Position numbers and translations under genes: made by a program
Origin: an uncultured Gammaproteobacteria bacterium
GTDB lineage: Bacteria; Patescibacteriota; Patescibacteriia; UBA2591; UBA6264
Direction of reading: 5' to 3'
Assembly (NCBI GenBank): GCA_964507075.1
Contig: CAZDOL010000001.1
Location: forward strand, 13,040-45,039
DNA: 32,000 nucleotides
Shown here: piece by piece, positions 74-27,388 of the stretch
How positions within the stretch are numbered: the stretch's first letter is position 1
Layout of the letters: the number at the start of each line of letters is the position of its first letter
Notes under the pieces: model-generated
The model's input: the letters and a program-made list of their open reading frames with translations, nothing else
Databases searched by the model: none
What the model was told of the DNA's origin: nothing

Positions 74-101
74 AATTTCTAATTTCTAATTTCTAATTTC
101 T
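74..101. repeat. Tandem heptamer AATTTCT x4
   Basis: Four abutting perfect AATTTCT units at 74-80, 81-87, 88-94 and 95-101, in non-coding sequence downstream of the minus-strand glycosyltransferase gene. Confidence 0.9.
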
Positions 102-110
102 AAACAAATT

Positions 111-7523: not shown

Positions 7524-8243
7524 CTAATCTTCAAAAATTAATTCCTCGTTTATTATTTCTTTAACGCTTTCAATAAGAGCCAAATTCCTATTATAATTCA
7601 TTCTAATCGGCCCCAAAATTCCTATCAGTCCACAATCTACGCTTCCCAGCAAATTACAACGAGTTAAAATAGCGCTGCAAGAACCACTAAAAAGATTTTT
7701 CTCTCCCATCAAAATTTGGGTTTCTCCACCAATAGAATCAAAAAGATCTAACATAATAGCATCTAAGTGATCAACAATCTGTGAAAATTCCTGCAAAATT
7801 AAAGCATTTTGAAATTCTGGCTGACCAAAAAGACGCGCAAATCCAGTATAGTAAAAAGAATTATCATCAAATTTAAGAATGCCCAGTTCTCCGCTCAAAC
7901 AAGCAATCTCTTTGACTAATTCTTTGGCTAAAGTTAATTGATCAAAATTTTTAGGCCTAACCTTTTCTAATTTCTTTTTCTCAGACTTAGGGGCCATTCC
8001 TGCCTTAGGCAAAAGATGGGAAACAAAATAACGAAACCCTTTAAGTGTTGGAGTTCTACCAGCAGAAGTATGCTCTTGCCACAAATAGCCTTGTTGCGCC
8101 AAGTCAACCATCTCCGCTCTAATGGTAGCAGAGCTAACCTTGGGCTCTAGTTTGGCAGATAAATATTCTGAGCTAACTGCTTGAGCGGTTTTGACATATT
8201 CTCCTAGAATAATTTTAAATATTTCTTCTTGTCTTTTGGTCAT
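7524..8243 (-). CDS. hrcA: Heat-inducible transcription repressor HrcA (short form)
   Basis: The N-terminal winged-helix region (TKRQEEIFKIILGEYVKTAQAVSSEYLS...SSATIRAEMVDLAQQGYLWQEHTSAGRTPTLKGFRYFV) matches HrcA. I prefer the Met at 8243 as the start. The extension to 8279 (MFQCSNVPMIIF) is encoded by the 8-mer repeat array. Confidence 0.85.
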   Translation of the reverse strand: MTKRQEEIFKIILGEYVKTAQAVSSEYLSAKLEPKVSSATIRAEMVDLAQQGYLWQEHTSAGRTPTLKGFRYFVSHLLPKAGMAPKSEKKKLEKVRPKNFDQLTLAKELVKEIACLSGELGILKFDDNSFYYTGFARLFGQPEFQNALILQEFSQIVDHLDAIMLDLFDSIGGETQILMGEKNLFSGSCSAILTRCNLLGSVDCGLIGILGPIRMNYNRNLALIESVKEIINEELIFED

Positions 8244-8253
8244 AAAAATAATC

Positions 8254-8294
8254 ATTGGAACATTAGAACATTGGAACATTGGAACAAAAAATAT
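8254..8294 (+). repeat. Period-8 array ATTGGAAC/ATTAGAAC x4 plus AAAAAATAT flank
   Basis: Units are ATTGGAAC (8254), ATTAGAAC (8262), ATTGGAAC (8270) and ATTGGAAC (8278), followed by AAAAAATAT (8286-8294). The array lies between CIRCE and the hrcA start. Confidence 0.95.
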
Positions 8295-8318
8295 TCCTGT
8301 TTTATTATAAACAACTAA

Positions 8319-8345
8319 TTAGCAGTCGTCAAGTCTAAGTGCTAA
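8319..8345 (-). promoter_or_regulatory. CIRCE operator (HrcA binding site)
   Basis: TTAGCAGTC-N9-AAGTGCTAA compared with consensus TTAGCACTC-N9-GAGTGCTAA gives 2 mismatches and correct 9-nt spacing. It lies upstream of hrcA and overlaps the murG stop codon. Confidence 0.85.
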
Positions 8346-9719: not shown

Positions 9720-9760
9720 AGCACCTCCTTGATATTTAAATTATATCACAAAACAACAAA

Positions 9761-10428: not shown

Positions 10429-11424
10429 AAGGGTTGACGAATTTTAAGAAATCAGTAAAACTTGACGTTATTTATACGCAAACGGTGCCTGGCACCGAAG
10501 AACAACCTCTTTAAACCCTTTGTGGCTCAGTGTTTTAAGCCAAAAATTTAAATTTACCCATATATTGGGTAAATAAATAATAAAAAATAAAATAATTATG
10601 CCGAGAAAATTACGAGAATTAATTGATTATCCCAGCAGTCATATTCATATTGTTTGTCGTGGCAATAATCAAAAAAAGATTTTTAGAAAAAAACAGGATT
10701 TTCAAAAATTTTTATCCATTCTTATTGAGGCTAAAAAGCGTTTTCGTTTTTTTATTTTTACCTTATCTTTAATGCCAAATCATTATCATTTGCAAATTCA
10801 ACTAAGAGAAGACACTGTTTCCGATATTATGCATTTTATCAATTTTCGTTACGCTAAATATATTAATCACGTTTACGACTCATCTGGACACCTCTTTCAA
10901 GACAGGTTTTATGCCAGTCACATAAAAGATGAAAATTACTTTATGGAAGTTTCTAGGTATATTCATCGCAACGCAGATAGAGCTCACTTAGTAACTGCGC
11001 CAGAAGATTATTTTTGGAGCAGTTTTGTAATTTATTATCAAAAATGTTATCCTAAAAACAGAAAAAGTATTGTTCTTTCTGAGAAAAAATTATTTCAAAT
11101 TGTTGACGCAGAAGAATTTTTAAATATTTTTTGTGGCAAACAACCACAAAAAAGCGATTTTTGTGATTATGTGCAATTTGTAAAAGAAGAAATTGACGAA
11201 GAAAAAATAAAAAAAATAATTGAACCGAAAATGGAGTAGCACAAACTCGCAAATAAAATTTACCCAATATACGGGTAAATTAGTTATCATGCTCTTATTT
11301 TGTGATTATAAAGCCACATTAGAACACCTAATTTCGGTGCCAGGCACCGATATATAAGGCACCGATATATAAATCAAGGGTTAACTCATCAAGGGTTGAC
11401 GGATTTTAAGAAATCAGTAAAACT
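10429..11424 (+). mobile_element. RAYT/IS200-like unit: 34-bp direct repeats and paired hairpins flanking a Y1 transposase gene
   Basis: The direct repeat AAGGGTTGACG[A/G]ATTTTAAGAAATCAGTAAAACT occurs at 10429-10462 and 11391-11424 with one mismatch. The palindrome CGGTGCCTGGCACCG (10483-10497) matches CGGTGCCAGGCACCG (11335-11349) in inverted orientation. The hairpin TTTACCCAtatatTGGGTAAA (10553-10573) matches TTTACCCaatatacGGGTAAA (11259-11279). A tandem GGCACCGATATATAA x2 lies at 11343-11372. Confidence 0.7.
10598..11239 (+). CDS. HUH-family Y1 tyrosine transposase (IS200-like / REP-associated tyrosine transposase)
   Basis: 213 aa. The HUH motif lies in LMPNHYHLQIQ and the catalytic Tyr motif in SRYIHRNADRAHLV, followed by the YFWSSF block typical of this family. 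Confidence 0.85.
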   Translation: MPRKLRELIDYPSSHIHIVCRGNNQKKIFRKKQDFQKFLSILIEAKKRFRFFIFTLSLMPNHYHLQIQLREDTVSDIMHFINFRYAKYINHVYDSSGHLFQDRFYASHIKDENYFMEVSRYIHRNADRAHLVTAPEDYFWSSFVIYYQKCYPKNRKSIVLSEKKLFQIVDAEEFLNIFCGKQPQKSDFCDYVQFVKEEIDEEKIKKIIEPKME

Positions 11425-13809: not shown

Positions 13810-13842
13810 ATTAGAGCATAAGAACATTGGAACAAAAAATAT
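13810..13842 (+). repeat. Period-8 array ATTAGAGC/ATAAGAAC/ATTGGAAC plus AAAAAATAT flank
   Basis: Three 8-mer units at 13810-13833, then AAAAAATAT. The last 17 nt (ATTGGAACAAAAAATAT) are identical to 8278-8294. GAACATTGG (13822-13830) is also complementary to CCAATGTTC (13794-13802), which overlaps the tRNA 3' end. Confidence 0.9.
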
Positions 13843-13918
13843 GGCAATCAGTAATCTACAATTCTAATTGCTGTAGCAACTTGAATCTACTTTATCTAAT
13901 AATATTTAAAACAAATAT

Positions 13919-14227
13919 ATGGCTAAAAAAGAAATTCACCCTAAATATTATCCTAAAGCAACAATTAATTGCTCCTGTGGGGCAAAATTTGTGGTTGGCT
14001 CTACTAAAGAAAAAATGCAAATTGAAATATGTTCTCAGTGCCATCCCCTTTATACTGGAAAACAAAAATTCATTGATACTGCTGGAAGATTAGAAAGATA
14101 TGAAAAAATAATCAAAAAATCAAAGGACCTCCAAAATTCTAAAACAAAAACCAAAAAGAAAGGAGAAAAAAAGAAAGTTAAAGAAGTCCAAAACGAAAAA
14201 AAAGAAACGAAAAAAAAGAAATCTTAA
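13919..14227 (+). CDS. rpmE: 50S ribosomal protein L31 with a Lys-rich C-terminal tail
   Basis: [11 protein letters not shown]...CSCG...[24 protein letters not shown] is canonical Zn-ribbon L31. About 35 additional K/E-rich residues follow. Confidence 0.92.
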
Positions 14228-16416: not shown

Positions 16417-17067
16417 CTATTGTTCAGTTGAAGCTGAAGGGTCTCCTTCTTTCTTTTCTTCTTCCTCTCCTTCTCCTTCACTTACCGAAGCAGGACTTTC
16501 CTCTTCTTCTTCCTTTATGTTGTGCGCCCTAACTGTTGCTACCGAACTCTCAATATCGGAAAGAATTTTAATATTTTCTGGCACATCTAAGTCGCCGACC
16601 CGAATAATATCATTGAGTTCAGTCAACTTGCTTAAATCAACTTCAATGCTTCTTATTAAATCTTTAGGAAGACATTCTACTTCTATTTTGTCTAATTCAT
16701 GAACCAAGATGCCACTAAAATCTTTAACTGCTTTTGAGGTTCCAATAAACTCCAAACCTACCTCAACAATAATTTTTTCTCCTTCTTTAACCTGATAAAA
16801 ATCAATATGCTCAACTTTATCAGTCAAAGGATGATATTGAATAGCGTGGACCAAAACCTTTCTGTCAGCTTGGCCTTCGACTTTTAAATTCATTAAACTA
16901 CTTTCTCCGGACTGCTTAAATGCTTTTTCAAAATCAGAAAGCAAGACCTGAACTGAAAGCGATTTTAAACCATGACCATAGACAACAGCAGGAATGATAT
17001 TTTCTTTTCTTAAATTTTTTGTTTTTTTGCCCGTTGTTTCTCGGACACTTGCTTTTAATTCTAACAT
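16417..17067 (-). CDS. rplY: 50S ribosomal protein L25 / general stress protein Ctc, with an acidic C-terminal tail
   Basis: The N-terminus LKASVRETTGKKTKNLRKENIIPAVVYGHG and the two-domain length are typical of Ctc-type L25. The tail reads EEEEESPASVSEGEGEEEEKKEGD. Confidence 0.88.
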   Translation of the reverse strand: MLELKASVRETTGKKTKNLRKENIIPAVVYGHGLKSLSVQVLLSDFEKAFKQSGESSLMNLKVEGQADRKVLVHAIQYHPLTDKVEHIDFYQVKEGEKIIVEVGLEFIGTSKAVKDFSGILVHELDKIEVECLPKDLIRSIEVDLSKLTELNDIIRVGDLDVPENIKILSDIESSVATVRAHNIKEEEEESPASVSEGEGEEEEKKEGDPSASTEQ

Positions 17068-19116: not shown

Positions 19117-19140
19117 TCCTGCCTCGCCGGCAGGCAGGGA
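19117..19140. repeat. GC-rich hairpin, copy A (CCTGCCT-CGCCGGC-AGGCAGG)
   Basis: Stem of 8-9 bp with a 7-nt loop. It is near-identical in word content to copy B at 19484-19503. Confidence 0.8.
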
Positions 19141-19165
19141 AATTAAATATTAATAAATAAAAAAT

Positions 19166-19438
19166 ATGAATATTCAAAATTTTTTTTATGTTGTAGCCAG
19201 CATTTCTATTGTTTTAATAGGAATTTTTTCTATAATTCTTCTCGTTATCGCCATTCTTGTTGCTTGTCGTTTATTTAAATTTTCCAAAAACTTAGCCAAT
19301 ATTTCTAAAAAGAGTGAAGAAATCTTAGAAAAAATAAAAAGTAAAGCAAATCTCATTGCCCTTCTGGCTCTTGCCAAAAATGTAACGAAAGAATTCTTCA
19401 ACAAAAATAGCAAGAAAGAAAAAAAAGAAAAGAAATAG
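19166..19438 (+). CDS. Small membrane-anchored protein (DUF948-like architecture)
   Basis: 90 aa with an N-terminal TM helix, then an amphipathic or coiled segment (NLANISKKSEEILEKIKSK) and a K/E tail. The resemblance to DUF948 is from memory only. Confidence 0.5.
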   Translation: MNIQNFFYVVASISIVLIGIFSIILLVIAILVACRLFKFSKNLANISKKSEEILEKIKSKANLIALLALAKNVTKEFFNKNSKKEKKEKK

Positions 19439-19442
19439 ATAC

Positions 19443-19474
19443 TTAGGTGATTGGGTGCTTAGTTAATTGGGGTC
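19443..19474 (+). repeat. Period-8 TTRG array variant
   Basis: TTAGGTGA, TTGGGTGC, TTAGTTAA, TTGGGGTC. It shows the same TTAG/TTGG alternation and period as the ATTRGAAC arrays. It is also part of a larger imperfect palindrome at 19463-19525. Confidence 0.75.
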
Positions 19475-19483
19475 CTGATTACC

Positions 19484-19503
19484 CCTGCCTACCGGCAGGC
19501 AGG
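19484..19503. repeat. GC-rich hairpin, copy B (CCTGCCT-ACCGGC-AGGCAGG)
   Basis: 7-bp stem with a 6-nt loop. It is nested inside the outer pairing TTAATTGGG (19463-19471) / CCCAATTAA (19517-19525). Confidence 0.8.
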
Positions 19504-19596
19504 CAATCCCCAATGACCCAATTAACACTTCTGATATTTGATAGTTTGTTAGAATAATTAGAATAATTAAGTCAATTAAAATAATTTCTTTGTATT

Positions 19597-22794: not shown

Positions 22795-22810
22795 AGTGAT
22801 ACAATGAATC

Positions 22811-22826
22811 ATTGGAACATTAGAAC
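22811..22826 (+). repeat. Period-8 array ATTGGAAC ATTAGAAC (2 units)
   Basis: Two units followed by AAAATAA. They lie between the dnaE stop and the start of the 22853 ORF. Confidence 0.8.
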
Positions 22827-24010: not shown

Positions 24011-25817
24011 TCAAACCAAAATACCTTTAGATATGTTACGACATTCTTGTAGTCATTTGATGGCTGCGGCTGTTCTATCTTTGTTTCCCGAAACTAAATT
24101 TGGGGTTGGACCTACTATTGAAAATGGATTTTATTATGACATAGAATTAGATAAAAAATTAAACCCGAACGACCTTCTTAGAATAGAAAAAAGAATGCAA
24201 AAATTGATTTCCCAAAATTTAAAATTTGACAAAAAAGAAATTACCATAAAAGAAGCATTGAAACTTTTTCAAGGCCTAAATCAACCTTATAAAATAGAGT
24301 TATTGCAAGACATTCAAAAAACCGGCACCACGAAAGCATTGAAACATGAAAACATTAGAACATTAGAGCATAAAAAAATAGACAAAGTAAGTGTTTATCA
24401 ATTGGGAAATTTTACTGACCTTTGTCGTGGACCCCATGTTAAATCTACAAAAGATTTAGTCAATGTTTCTTTTAAATTAACAAAAATAGCTGGAGCTTAT
24501 TGGAGGGGTGACGAAAAAAATAAAATGCTAACCAGAATTTACGGCCTAGCATTTGAAAAACAAAAAAAACTTGATGAATATCTAAAAAATTTAGCTGAGG
24601 CAGAAAAAAGAGACCACCGCAAATTAGGAAAAGAATTAGATTTATTTTGCTTCTCTGATTTGGTTGGCCCAGGATTACCTATGTTTACCCCAAAAGGAGT
24701 TATAATTATTGACGAATTAAAAAAAGAAATAGAAAAAATTTGCGCTACTTATGGATTTGAAAAAGTTATGACCCCCCATCTTGCCAAAATAGACCTCTAC
24801 AAGCTGTCTGGTCATGCTCAAAAATTTAGTAAAGAATTATTCCACGTCTCTTCTGAACAAGGACATAATTTTGTAATGAAACCAGTTCAGTGCCCTCACC
24901 AAACCCAAATTTATGCTTCCCAGAAACGCTCTTATCGCGATTTACCGATAAGATATATGGAATCGGAAAAACAATACCGAGCTGAAAAATCAGGTGAAGT
25001 TGGTGGATTAAATAGAGTCTATGCAATCACCATTGAAGATGGGCATTCTTTCTGTCAAATATCTCAAGTAAAACAAGAAATAAAAAATATGGTGAAAATA
25101 ATAAAAGATTTCTATAGCTCCGTTGGACTTTGGGATAATCACTGGGTATCACTTTCCGTCAGAGATTATAATCACCAAGAAAATTATATTGGAGAGCCTA
25201 AAGACTGGGATGAATGTGAAAAGATACTTGAAGAAGTTTCTAAAGAAATGAAACTAAACGCCAAAAGAATTGAAGGAGAAGCAGCTGTCTATGGACCCAA
25301 GCTTGATTTTATGTTTAAAGACTCAATGGGAAAAGAAATCCAAATTCCAACAGTTCAACTTGATTTTGCCACGCCCAAACGTTTTAATTTAGTTTATACC
25401 AACAAAGAAGGTAAAGAAGAATTTGTGGTTATGGTCCATCGCGCTATATTAGGTTCTTACGAGCGCTTTTTAGCATTATTAATTGAGCATTACGCGGGCG
25501 CTTTTCCTATTTGGCTCTCCCCTGCTCAAATATACTTAACGCCTGTTGGAAAAACTCATCACCCAGCAGTAAAAAAAATAGCGCAAGAATTAAAAGAATC
25601 TGGATTAAGAACAGAAATTGATTTATCCAACGAAACTATTTCTTATAAAATTCGTAAAGCCGAAGTGCAAAAAATACCATACATTGTAGTTATTGGCGAC
25701 AAAGAAATAAAAGGAAAATATTTGAACATCAGAGCTAGGGGTAATAAAATGGAAAAATTGACCAAAAAACAATTTATAGAAAAAGTTTTAAAACAAATAA
25801 GAAATAAAAAGTCTTAA
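24000..25817 (+). CDS. thrS: Threonyl-tRNA synthetase (no N-terminal TGS domain)
   Basis: Editing-domain HxxxH (RHSCSHLMAAAV) lies at the very N-terminus. Also present are DLCRGPHV, class II core motifs (HRKLGKELDLF and the MVHRAILGS..ERF region) and a C-terminal anticodon-binding domain. Confidence 0.94.
   Translation: MISNQTKIPLDMLRHSCSHLMAAAVLSLFPETKFGVGPTIENGFYYDIELDKKLNPNDLLRIEKRMQKLISQNLKFDKKEITIKEALKLFQGLNQPYKIELLQDIQKTGTTKALKHENIRTLEHKKIDKVSVYQLGNFTDLCRGPHVKSTKDLVNVSFKLTKIAGAYWRGDEKNKMLTRIYGLAFEKQKKLDEYLKNLAEAEKRDHRKLGKELDLFCFSDLVGPGLPMFTPKGVIIIDELKKEIEKICATYGFEKVMTPHLAKIDLYKLSGHAQKFSKELFHVSSEQGHNFVMKPVQCPHQTQIYASQKRSYRDLPIRYMESEKQYRAEKSGEVGGLNRVYAITIEDGHSFCQISQVKQEIKNMVKIIKDFYSSVGLWDNHWVSLSVRDYNHQENYIGEPKDWDECEKILEEVSKEMKLNAKRIEGEAAVYGPKLDFMFKDSMGKEIQIPTVQLDFATPKRFNLVYTNKEGKEEFVVMVHRAILGSYERFLALLIEHYAGAFPIWLSPAQIYLTPVGKTHHPAVKKIAQELKESGLRTEIDLSNETISYKIRKAEVQKIPYIVVIGDKEIKGKYLNIRARGNKMEKLTKKQFIEKVLKQIRNKKS
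24338..24377 (+). repeat. Period-8 array embedded in frame in thrS
   Basis: ATTGAAAC, ATGAAAAC, ATTAGAAC, ATTAGAGC, ATAAAAAA. It shares the 14-mer ACATTAGAGCATAA with the intergenic array at 13808-13821. It encodes ALKHENIRTLEHKKI. Confidence 0.8.
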
Positions 25818-25829
25818 AAAAAAAGATTT

Positions 25830-26414
25830 ATGATTAAAATCAAAAACGAAGAATTAATCCAAGAACTGATTGGTGAAACAAAAAATTTTCCAAAATATGC
25901 CACTCAATTAATAAACATAGCTAACCAAAATGCCCAAGGAACAAGACCTCGAGTGGTTGGACAACTATCAGAATTAATCAATGAGTGTCCAGAAAAAACT
26001 TATCAAGGATGGAAAAAATGGTATCTTTCAAGATATCCCAATACTATCAAAAATGCGACAGAAAAAATCAACGAAATGATGAATAACCTGAAAGGCGCTA
26101 TAAAATCAATTGATAAATCAATGATTAAAAAATGGGTTGAAGATTTGGTCTTAGAGAAGACTTTTATTGGTCTAAAATTTCAAGTAGCAATTCTGAAAAA
26201 AATTGCCTTAATAAAAAATACCAATTATAAATTAGCTGACCCGAAAGAAGAATCACAAGGTATTGACGGTTTTATTGGCAATGTCCCGATTTCAATCAAG
26301 CCAATAACCTATAAAACAAAAGATGCTTTAAAAGAGGAAATCAGAACTAAAATTATTTATTATAATAAAACTAAATCTGGTTTAGAAATAGACGCAGATA
26401 CTATTTTAAAATAA
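25830..26414 (+). CDS. Putative type II restriction endonuclease (PD-(D/E)xK-like; possibly MjaI-like family)
   Basis: 194-aa ORF whose stop overlaps the methyltransferase start (TAATG). A candidate catalytic region is EESQGIDGFIGNVPISIKP (D...SxK). The MjaI-family resemblance is from memory and unverified. Confidence 0.55.
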   Translation: MIKIKNEELIQELIGETKNFPKYATQLINIANQNAQGTRPRVVGQLSELINECPEKTYQGWKKWYLSRYPNTIKNATEKINEMMNNLKGAIKSIDKSMIKKWVEDLVLEKTFIGLKFQVAILKKIALIKNTNYKLADPKEESQGIDGFIGNVPISIKPITYKTKDALKEEIRTKIIYYNKTKSGLEIDADTILK

Positions 26415-27388
26415 TGACAATGGCAACAACTCATAAAATTATAATTGGCGATTCACGCAATATGGTTGCTGTCCCAGACAAATCGGTTCATCTTGGTATT
26501 ACCTCGCCACCTTATTGGCAAATCAAAGATTACAAAAACGAGAATCAAATTGGGTTTAATGACACATATGAAGAGTATATTGATAATTTAAATAAGGTCT
26601 GGTCAGAATGCTACCGAGTTTTACATCCCGGATGCCGATTGTGCATAAATATCGGTGATCAATTTGCGAGAGCTGTGACTTACGGAAGATACAAAGTCAT
26701 ACCGATTAGAACAGAGATTATAAAATTCTGTGAGTCAATTGGCTTTGATTATATGGGAGCGATTATTTGGCAAAAAAAGACAACAATGAATACTACTGGC
26801 GGTGCTTCAGTAATGGGCTCTTTCCCTTATCCTCGTAATGGTATTATTGAGATTGACTACGAATTCATTCTCTTGTTTAAAAAACTAGGAAAATTACCAA
26901 ATAATATATCTGCAAAAAACAAAAAACAATCAGAAATGACAAAAGAAGAATGGAGAAAATATTTTACCGGTCACTGGAATTTTGCTGGCGAAAGACAAAA
27001 TAACGGACACATCGCAATGTTCCCTGAAGAATTACCAAAAAGACTGATAAAAATGTTTAGCTTCATTGGTGAAACTATTTTAGATCCCTTTTTGGGTAGT
27101 GGAACTAGCGCAAAAGTAGCCAAAGAATTAAAAAGAAACTCTATTGGCTATGAAATTAACGAAGACTACCTGCCTATAATTAAGAAAAAAGTTGGTATTT
27201 CAAAAAAATCCCTTTTTGACAGAGAGTGTAAATTTGAAATTTTGCGCCAAAAAACAAAAAAAATACTGCCCAAAATCACTACAACCAAAAAAAAATCTTC
27301 TAAAAAATCTTTAATAAATAACCGAATTAACAATCCAGATTACTGGAAATCTTTAAAAGAAAAAAATCAAGTTAAACTATCTATGTAA
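26414..27388 (+). CDS. DNA methyltransferase, beta-class N4-C/N6-A (SPPY type, likely m4C)
   Basis: Motif IV (ITSPPYW) lies near the N-terminus and motif I (DPFLGSGTS) near the C-terminus, which is the beta-class order. A basic low-complexity tail follows. Confidence 0.88.
   Translation: MTMATTHKIIIGDSRNMVAVPDKSVHLGITSPPYWQIKDYKNENQIGFNDTYEEYIDNLNKVWSECYRVLHPGCRLCINIGDQFARAVTYGRYKVIPIRTEIIKFCESIGFDYMGAIIWQKKTTMNTTGGASVMGSFPYPRNGIIEIDYEFILLFKKLGKLPNNISAKNKKQSEMTKEEWRKYFTGHWNFAGERQNNGHIAMFPEELPKRLIKMFSFIGETILDPFLGSGTSAKVAKELKRNSIGYEINEDYLPIIKKKVGISKKSLFDRECKFEILRQKTKKILPKITTTKKKSSKKSLINNRINNPDYWKSLKEKNQVKLSM

Follow-up and report, generated by a model that had tools for sequence, protein, structure and literature searches.

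Genomic setting

The DNA analysed here, a stretch of 32,000 nucleotides referred to as the window, belongs to an uncultured Parcubacteria (CPR) bacterium; the homologues of its genes come from metagenome-assembled genomes (MAGs) of Patescibacteria/Parcubacteria, one of which is Candidatus Parcubacteria bacterium 4484_255. The window has a G+C content of about 33%, and about 6.6% of it is intergenic. On the minus strand the gene order is murG, hrcA, grpE and dnaK; on the plus strand dprA, a Y1 transposase gene, topA, tRNA-Leu, rpmE and prfA are followed by dnaE, an ORF of 385 aa, thrS and an MjaI-type restriction-modification pair. The tRNA-Leu gene was the sole match in an Rfam search of the window. 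With 11 kb of the same genome lying further on, the host sequence examined amounts to about 43 kb. Loci of other assemblies and genomes are indicated by their L numbers.

Tandem arrays of an 8-nt unit

An initial annotation, made from the sequence alone, had pointed out an 8-nt unit, ATTRGAAC, recurring in short tandem runs ahead of several genes. When an array is defined as two or more units, none of them with more than 1 mismatch, the window contains 4 arrays (A to D, Table 1), against 0.055 expected from 200 Markov shuffles. Exact units number 12, a figure reached by 0 of 100 shuffles, against 3.1 +/- 1.7 expected, and this excess comes wholly from the tandem arrays. Outside them 4 lone units are left, while a shuffled window is expected to contain about 3.1 exact units of any kind: the single unit at 11318-11325, previously counted as a family member, is thus at chance level. 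Another lone unit, at 16739-16746, lies on the minus strand.

Arrays A (TRF score 61, 8253-8286) and C are made of exact units, four and two respectively, just as had been described. At array B a three-unit array is indeed found, but only one unit is exact, the other two carrying one mismatch each. Array D, inside thrS, was missing from the first list. The arrays are therefore non-random and form one sequence family, and their placement ahead of start codons was also borne out: 3 of the 4 are intergenic, though intergenic DNA is such a small part of the window. The 17-mer ATTGGAACAAAAAATAT is identical at the two positions reported for it.

Table 1. Arrays, related repeats and associated features, in window coordinates
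Feature	Position	Strand	Description
Related heptamer array (ATTAGAA)4	74..103	-	reads AATTTCT on the plus strand
hrcA	7524..8243	-	239 aa
Array A	8254..8285	+	four exact units, ATTGGAAC ATTAGAAC ATTGGAAC ATTGGAAC; antisense to hrcA, 10 nt before its ATG (8243)
17-mer ATTGGAACAAAAAATAT, copy 1	8278..8294	+	last unit of array A and A-rich flank
Predicted hrcA promoter, TTGACG-17-TATAAT	8304..8345	-	-35 at 8332..8327, -10 at 8309..8304; 11/12 matches
Array B	13810..13833	+	ATTAGAGC ATAAGAAC ATTGGAAC; tRNA-Leu-rpmE spacer, sense to rpmE, 85 nt before ATG
17-mer, copy 2	13826..13842	+	
Related 9-nt repeat TTAGAATAA	19549..19586	+	some 2 well-preserved copies followed by decayed ones; dnaE (ATG 19597) lies downstream
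Array C	22811..22826	+	ATTGGAAC ATTAGAAC; 26 nt before ATG of the 385-aa ORF (22853 ORF)
Array D	24338..24377	+	ATTGAAAC ATGAAAAC ATTAGAAC ATTAGAGC ATAAAAAA; degenerate five-unit array inside thrS

These features are those of simple sequence repeats with units of 5-11 nt: the copies run head to tail in numbers above the expectation from composition and, as is usual for units that are not a multiple of 3, they are mainly non-coding, the one coding array sitting in a variable linker of ThrRS. Potential seeds for such arrays are plentiful, since the word TTAGAA is found 80 times in the window against 49 +/- 8 expected; its strand is that of the coding sequence, where it chiefly represents a Leu codon followed by a Glu codon.

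Position relative to promoters and start codons

The predicted hrcA promoter overlaps the CIRCE element (8319-8345); both are kept in relatives, and the promoter marks the point where a variable leader begins. Array A occupies the stretch from 19 to 50 nt downstream of the -10 box and, because this box is conserved, the array would be contained in the hrcA 5' leader, reading GTTCYAAT (GUUCYAAU in RNA) in the sense of the mRNA. No Shine-Dalgarno sequence precedes the gene. Array A misleads gene callers: public annotations make HrcA 243 or 251 aa long, starting at in-frame ATGs inside the array (8255 and 8279), while comparison with relatives indicates that the true start is at 8243.

Immediately after the dnaE stop codon comes a conserved extended -10 box (TGATAYAAT; TGATACAAT in the window, with TG at 22797-22798 and TACAAT at 22800-22805). 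Array C begins some 6 nt further on and is probably the first sequence of the transcript of the 385-aa ORF, which also lacks a Shine-Dalgarno sequence. For tRNA-Leu the predicted promoter falls within the 3' end of topA, so that array B, placed after the tRNA gene, would similarly be found in transcribed leader or spacer DNA. Array D encodes the variable ThrRS linker KHENIRTLEHKKI; this segment of thrS aligns codon by codon with those of L252 and L253, where a weaker period-8 pattern is seen. When compared with shuffled sequences the leaders are not more structured (z = -0.1, +1.7 and -0.5), and an RNA thermometer, or otherwise structured hrcA leader, was discarded as its fold is not significant.

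It had been proposed that the arrays are promoter or UP-like elements, and replication-origin iterons may be considered along with them. The region is AT-rich, a weak TTGGAA-18-TATTAT match is present on the plus strand at 8279-8308, and near 9.7 kb genes diverge (9720-9760) and the AT skew shifts. That match, however, is directed into the murG 3' end and is antisense to that gene. A UP element is an A/T-rich sequence at -40 to -60, upstream of the -35 box, whereas arrays A and C are downstream of conserved -10 boxes, array B follows tRNA-Leu, and none lies upstream of a -35 box; a role as promoter or UP element is excluded by position, to the extent that the promoters were inferred from conserved motifs. 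The window contains 7 matches to the DnaA box against 8.4 expected, scattered and not clustered. Overall, we hold promoter or origin elements to be highly improbable here.

Orientation and related repeats

All copies had been said to read in the same direction. The three intergenic arrays do lie on one strand, which is weak evidence (p = 0.25), and the claim is further weakened by the (ATTAGAA)4 array on the minus strand, by the relative at 19549-19586 and by the minus-strand lone unit at 16739. With respect to the downstream gene, two of the intergenic ATTRGAAC arrays are sense and one, that of hrcA, is antisense; taking together all arrays with a TTAGAA core, 5 of 6 are sense, a proportion which is not significant (p about 0.2).

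The 7-nt and 9-nt related arrays keep the TTAGAA core with periods differing from that of the octamer. The heptamer array ends 14 nt upstream of the start of a glycosyltransferase gene (CAT at 57-59) and is sense to it. The GT1-GT2 spacer (60-347) is a mixture of heptamers, namely AATTTCT x4.3, decayed TAAATCC/TAAACCC and TTTCGGA x2.7, and features two strong hairpins (104-225, z = -3.0). Degenerate periodicity had been described at 225-347: repeats are in fact present there (221-335), but they are heptamers, not octamers. The sequence at 19443-19474, previously taken for a TTRG variant of period 8, turned out to be the 5' arm of a long hairpin (19436-19545, z = -2.8) and does not belong to the tandem arrays of this family.

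Comparison within the population and with relatives

Array A is 100% identical in 10 of 10 assemblies of the same population obtained from different samples, array B is identical in 3 of 3, and arrays C and D are unchanged in L290. Variation in copy number between strains, which the initial annotation had suggested as a check, was thus not seen, array A being covered by 10 assemblies and the others by fewer.

This bears on the possibility that the arrays are phase-variable contingency loci, in which gain or loss of units would change the length of the leader, or the frame of an upstream AUG, and thereby switch expression. The period is not a multiple of 3, array A contains both in-frame and out-of-frame AUGs, and gene callers variously give HrcA 239, 243 or 251 aa. 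Phase-variable loci, however, are homogeneous tracts with length polymorphism within a population: here the units are heterogeneous (ATTGGAAC, ATTAGAAC, ATTAGAGC), such interruptions having a stabilising effect on arrays, no length difference was found in L120-L129 or L290, and hrcA, rpmE and thrS are housekeeping rather than surface genes. We regard phase variation as very improbable.

Eight syntenic loci among L246-L254 were available as relatives, with HrcA proteins 63-86% identical and 385-aa proteins 59-81% identical to those of the window. No ATTRGAAC array was found in about 150 kb of their syntenic DNA: copy number, identical within one population, contrasts with arrays absent or replaced in all relatives. 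In the hrcA region CIRCE and the promoter are conserved everywhere, and the leader following the -10 box differs by lineage. In L250 it measures 11 nt and includes an AAGGA Shine-Dalgarno sequence, in L248 it runs to about 80 nt rich in A and T, and in L246/L247 it contains a heptamer array, (TAAATCC)4.6, where the window has the octamer array. The tRNA-Leu-rpmE spacer of relatives is 30-80 nt long, contains no array and always ends in AAAAAATATGGCTAAA, the rpmE start context, to which the AAAAAATAT(GGC) part of the second 17-mer copy corresponds; the conserved AAAAAATAT end previously reported is therefore, at array B, ancestral rpmE start context. In the dnaE-ORF spacer all relatives compared keep the extended -10 box, and L251 features, right after it, a single ATTAGAAC where the window has two units. 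This single unit is a visible seed for array C. The GT1-GT2 spacer of L246 contains (GATTGTT)5 and (CAATTAG)3.9, and no array is found there in L248 or L250.

The presence of unrelated units at orthologous spacers indicates that spacer length and repeat content turn over quickly, and the array positions are hot spots of unconstrained sequence where short-unit repeats come and go.

Some further variation was noticed in the same regions. The thrS linker of L251 (8471-8542) is encoded by an in-frame octamer array, (GCRCCCAA)5, which specifies YPSTQAPKRPSTQ at the position of the degenerate CATNNGAA array of the window, so that one protein site hosts different 8-nt repeats in sister lineages. In the rpmE leader (window 13839-13923) a lineage-specific segment of about 78 nt is included between ATATGGC direct repeats (13839-13845 and 13917-13923), with a hairpin at about 13841-13877; in relatives AAAAAATATGGC runs directly into the rpmE coding sequence.

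Operator arrays are conserved at orthologous promoters and have a cognate gene nearby. The arrays described here, which had been thought to be possibly a protein-binding array, are absent from every close relative examined and have no gene for a cognate binding protein adjacent to them, which speaks against a conserved operator. In particular, no RHH/Par-type gene was found among 10 window proteins analysed with Pfam (including those of the array-flanking hrcA, murG, dnaE and 22853 ORF) or, for the other genes, in precomputed domain tables of the same population.

Shared junctions between loci

Loci A and C share a junction of 21/21 nt, AATC+ATTGGAACATTAGAAC+A, which includes the 4-nt flank AATC. 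Loci A and B share a 36-nt stretch, identical at 33 of 36 positions, containing the 17-mer and the 9-nt flank AAAAAATAT. Pure local slippage does not explain these junctions.

They argue for another reading, in which a very small element has been multiplied from locus to locus, through templated insertion or ectopic gene conversion, each array being one of its copies, as in the tiny mobile repeat already suggested in the initial annotation. The A/B stretch includes ATTGGAAC+AAAAAATAT, and AAAAAATAT occurs only 10 times on the plus strand of the 32-kb window; moreover, the absence of all arrays from relatives implies recent and roughly simultaneous gains, and the TAAATCC/TAAACCC family is found at non-orthologous loci in sister species, the GT1-GT2 spacer in the window and the hrcA leader in L246 (repeat at L246 9923-9954). 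On the other hand, the AAAAAATAT flank at B and the ATTAGAAC unit at C are ancestral, and so did not arrive as the ends of an element; the surroundings of the arrays show neither terminal inverted repeats nor hairpins nor target-site duplications; the arrays are not palindromic; the unit beside the Y1 transposase gene is at chance level; and the further 11 kb of the same genome contain no ATTRGAAC array. Locus A does share junctions with both C and B, but, one flank being ancestral at B and at C, local growth plus ectopic copying fits better than a discrete mobile element. The reading of the arrays as pasted copies is, in our view, improbable.

REP/REPIN sequences, which RAYT (Y1) transposases mobilise, are like the arrays in the small size and dispersal of the repeats, and a Y1_Tnp gene is present in the window. 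REP sequences are palindromic hairpins, often found as inverted pairs, whereas the ATTRGAAC arrays are direct repeats, not palindromic and without an inverted partner, in leaders whose folds are not significant.

Occurrence of the unit in other genomes

A search of genome contigs with a 16-mer gave 119 matches, mostly due to chance as the pattern is too short. ATKRGARC-type arrays are nevertheless found in other Patescibacteria MAGs (L008, L055, L083 and L116), and a scan of metagenomes with three degenerate units identified 116 loci with a GC content of 0.28-0.69. Outside long open frames fall 71 of 88 metagenome arrays, a figure which, relying on home-made and noisy ORF calls, speaks for an intergenic preference only. 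In a control on viral contigs the composition-matched reversed octamer gave 16 stretches and the real unit 18: the reversed unit being about equally frequent, matches across phyla are generic, as for any octamer microsatellite. A literature search for the literal repeat strings found nothing.

Many such arrays, in unrelated metagenome and MAG contigs, pair up: a forward (CATKRGAR)n run, a short spacer and an inverted (GYTCYMAT)n run together make a long imperfect hairpin (z = -4.5 in L083). Such hairpins, found at L083 3812-3887, L244 5328-5470 and 1071-1154 and L236 4235-4366, and also in L233, L225, L151, L141 and L210, occupy the whole interval between two genes of the same direction and stop at the downstream ATG or no more than a few nt from it; in L083 and L225 they lie upstream of an epimerase-like gene starting MNIL(V/I)TG.

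Origin and possible role of the arrays

The explanation we favour, with confidence only slightly better than even, is that the arrays are a young, lineage-specific family of simple sequence repeats of the 5-11-nt class, which arose through local duplication in leader, spacer and linker DNA that is transcribed yet free of constraint. The sites of growth would be the leaders between -10 box and start codon of hrcA and of the 385-aa ORF, the tRNA-Leu-rpmE spacer and the ThrRS linker. Slipped-strand mispairing may have duplicated local seeds bearing the common words TTAGAA and GAACAT, with subsequent decay by point mutation producing the mixture of ATTGGAAC, ATTAGAAC and ATTAGAGC units, and with occasional recombination-like ectopic copying between arrays producing the shared junctions. 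The arrays would lengthen leaders for which no structure is predicted and which have no Shine-Dalgarno sequence, and would add upstream AUGs, with an effect on the initiation of translation that is presumably modest at most.

Several observations weigh against this explanation. One unit family is found at four loci within 32 kb, together with the 7-nt and 9-nt relatives that have the TTAGAA core, where independent slippage would give different units, as in L246; the junctions that locus A shares with C and B go beyond pure local slippage; and in 10 or more assemblies no difference in copy number was seen, which does not speak for ongoing slippage. A function in translation or in protein binding is hypothetical but conceivable.

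Long simple sequence repeats with 5-11-nt units, as summarised in PMC4679880 from Mrazek et al. 2007, provide the class for comparison, together with the cyanobacterial STRR heptamers; reports of 6-9-nt SSRs are described as rare in PMC4692102. Like these repeats, the arrays consist of short units arranged head to tail, fall mostly outside coding sequence where unit length is not divisible by 3, and are lineage-specific, an origin through polymerase slippage being assumed. They differ in being very short and interrupted, with no length polymorphism seen, and in the recurrence of one unit at several loci with shared junctions.

A second term of comparison is offered by the TAACTGA direct repeats, present just upstream of start codons in marine Beggiatoaceae, cyanobacteria and Bacteroidetes (MacGregor 2015, PMC4679880), in about 170 sets genome-wide (PMC4679880). 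Both are short (2-6 copy) intergenic tandem direct repeats with units of 7-8 nt, lying just ahead of starts without a Shine-Dalgarno sequence, including those of ribosomal-protein genes, and both are phylogenetically patchy and without a known function. The unit found here, however, is ATTRGAAC with period 8, not a heptamer; orientation is mixed and the distance to the ATG goes from 10 to 85 nt instead of a few nt; and 3-4 arrays were found in the 43 kb examined, in a CPR host. TAACTGA repeats are forward and take the place of the ribosome-binding site; here two arrays are sense and one is antisense, and hrcA and the 385-aa ORF have no Shine-Dalgarno sequence.

By analogy, the arrays could act in cis, as part of mRNA leaders or as DNA, by binding a single multimeric protein with affinity for nucleic acids, such as S1, CsrA, a cold-shock protein or a ribbon-helix-helix protein. 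They could then define a post-transcriptional regulon in which hrcA, rpmE and the 385-aa ORF, and possibly also dnaE and the glycosyltransferase gene, would be linked, on the model put forward for TAACTGA repeats. The occurrence of one unit family at several leaders, the vicinity to start codons without Shine-Dalgarno sequences, the predicted single-stranded state of the leaders and the sense orientation of 5 of the 6 TTAGAA-core arrays would all agree with this possibility, for which MacGregor 2015 (PMC4679880) offers a precedent in the form of a hypothesis. The orientation bias, however, is not significant, and the hrcA array is antisense, so that its mRNA contains GUUCYAAU and not AUURGAAC; the distance from the ATG is far from constant; all close relatives lack the arrays although genes and promoters are conserved; and no candidate gene for the binding protein is adjacent, according to Pfam for 10 window proteins and to domain tables for the rest. 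On our analysis, binding by a common protein is unlikely, with a small but real chance of being correct.

Arrays bound by ribbon-helix-helix proteins include the omega heptads of pSM19035 and the ACTC boxes, with an 8-bp period, of TP228 parH; they overlap promoters or centromeres, adjoin the gene for the binding protein and are conserved. The arrays of the window resemble them in having contiguous units of 7-8 bp, in either orientation, near gene starts, and an 8-bp period is one that a DNA-coating protein can use; they differ in lying downstream of the -10 box, in having no such gene adjacent and in not being conserved.

A more speculative proposal, which we hold to be distinctly improbable, combines copying and binding: ATTRGAAC arrays and the 7-nt and 9-nt arrays with a TTAGAA core would be a sequence-defined module, actively copied between 5' leaders, on which translation could be initiated or regulated without a Shine-Dalgarno sequence, through recognition by an RNA-binding protein. 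Templated copy-and-paste between leaders would account for the presence of identical junctions of 17-21 nt at different loci. If true, the module would be a previously unrecognised leader element with rapid turnover in CPR bacteria, and might have counterparts in many other uncultured lineages, where octamer arrays abut start codons, often as forward-plus-inverted hairpins.

Under the explanation we favour, in which the arrays are nothing but simple sequence repeats, their practical value is small but real, in that they confuse the calling of gene starts and mark unconstrained leaders; they would also indicate that 7-8-nt repeats can be gained and lost rapidly between promoter and start codon even in CPR genomes of very small size. 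Should copying between loci, or a binding factor, be real, the window would offer a tractable case of the spread of a short repeat and of its co-option in leaders without Shine-Dalgarno sequences; how such families spread is a question standing since STRR and TAACTGA repeats were described.

Other elements in the region

The Y1_Tnp gene (10598-11239), of IS200-like type, has flanks (10429-10581 and 11251-11424) carrying a 34-nt direct repeat, 97% identical, and, on either side of the gene, the two hairpin-type sequences GGTGCCWGGCACCG and TTTACCC...GGGTAAA; at 11342-11371 one flank also has 15 nt duplicated in tandem. Of the relatives, L246 has an acetyltransferase gene at this position and L249 nothing. 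A link between this gene and the arrays was rejected, the direct repeat and the hairpins being unrelated to the octamer.

Between thrS and a DUF5667 gene (25830-27388) lie the genes for an MjaI-family restriction endonuclease and an N4/N6 DNA methyltransferase. The syntenic relatives L251-L254 do not have this pair at that site, where L254 has a HigB/HTH toxin-antitoxin pair instead, which suggests that the MjaI-type pair forms a small defence islet at a variable site. MjaI recognises CTAG. A connection with the arrays was also rejected here: in ATTRGAAC runs the base before every TAG is T, and CTAG can thus never occur in them.

A G+C-rich hairpin, CCTGCC-NNNN-GGCAGGCAGG, is found at two intergenic sites of the window (19125-19145 and 19484-19504). 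A 25-nt stretch of it is present in two identical copies (1387-1411 and 1658-1682) in the L055 MAG contig, which has an unrelated label and contains ATTRGAAC arrays along with a mosaic of other small repeats; the hairpin could represent a REP-like or terminator module that is dispersed and common to different genomes.

Finally, about 5 kb past the right end of the window, in the same genome (L290 16567-16941), a bacterial RNase P RNA of class A (116.5 bits) is located within a 473-nt gene-free gap.
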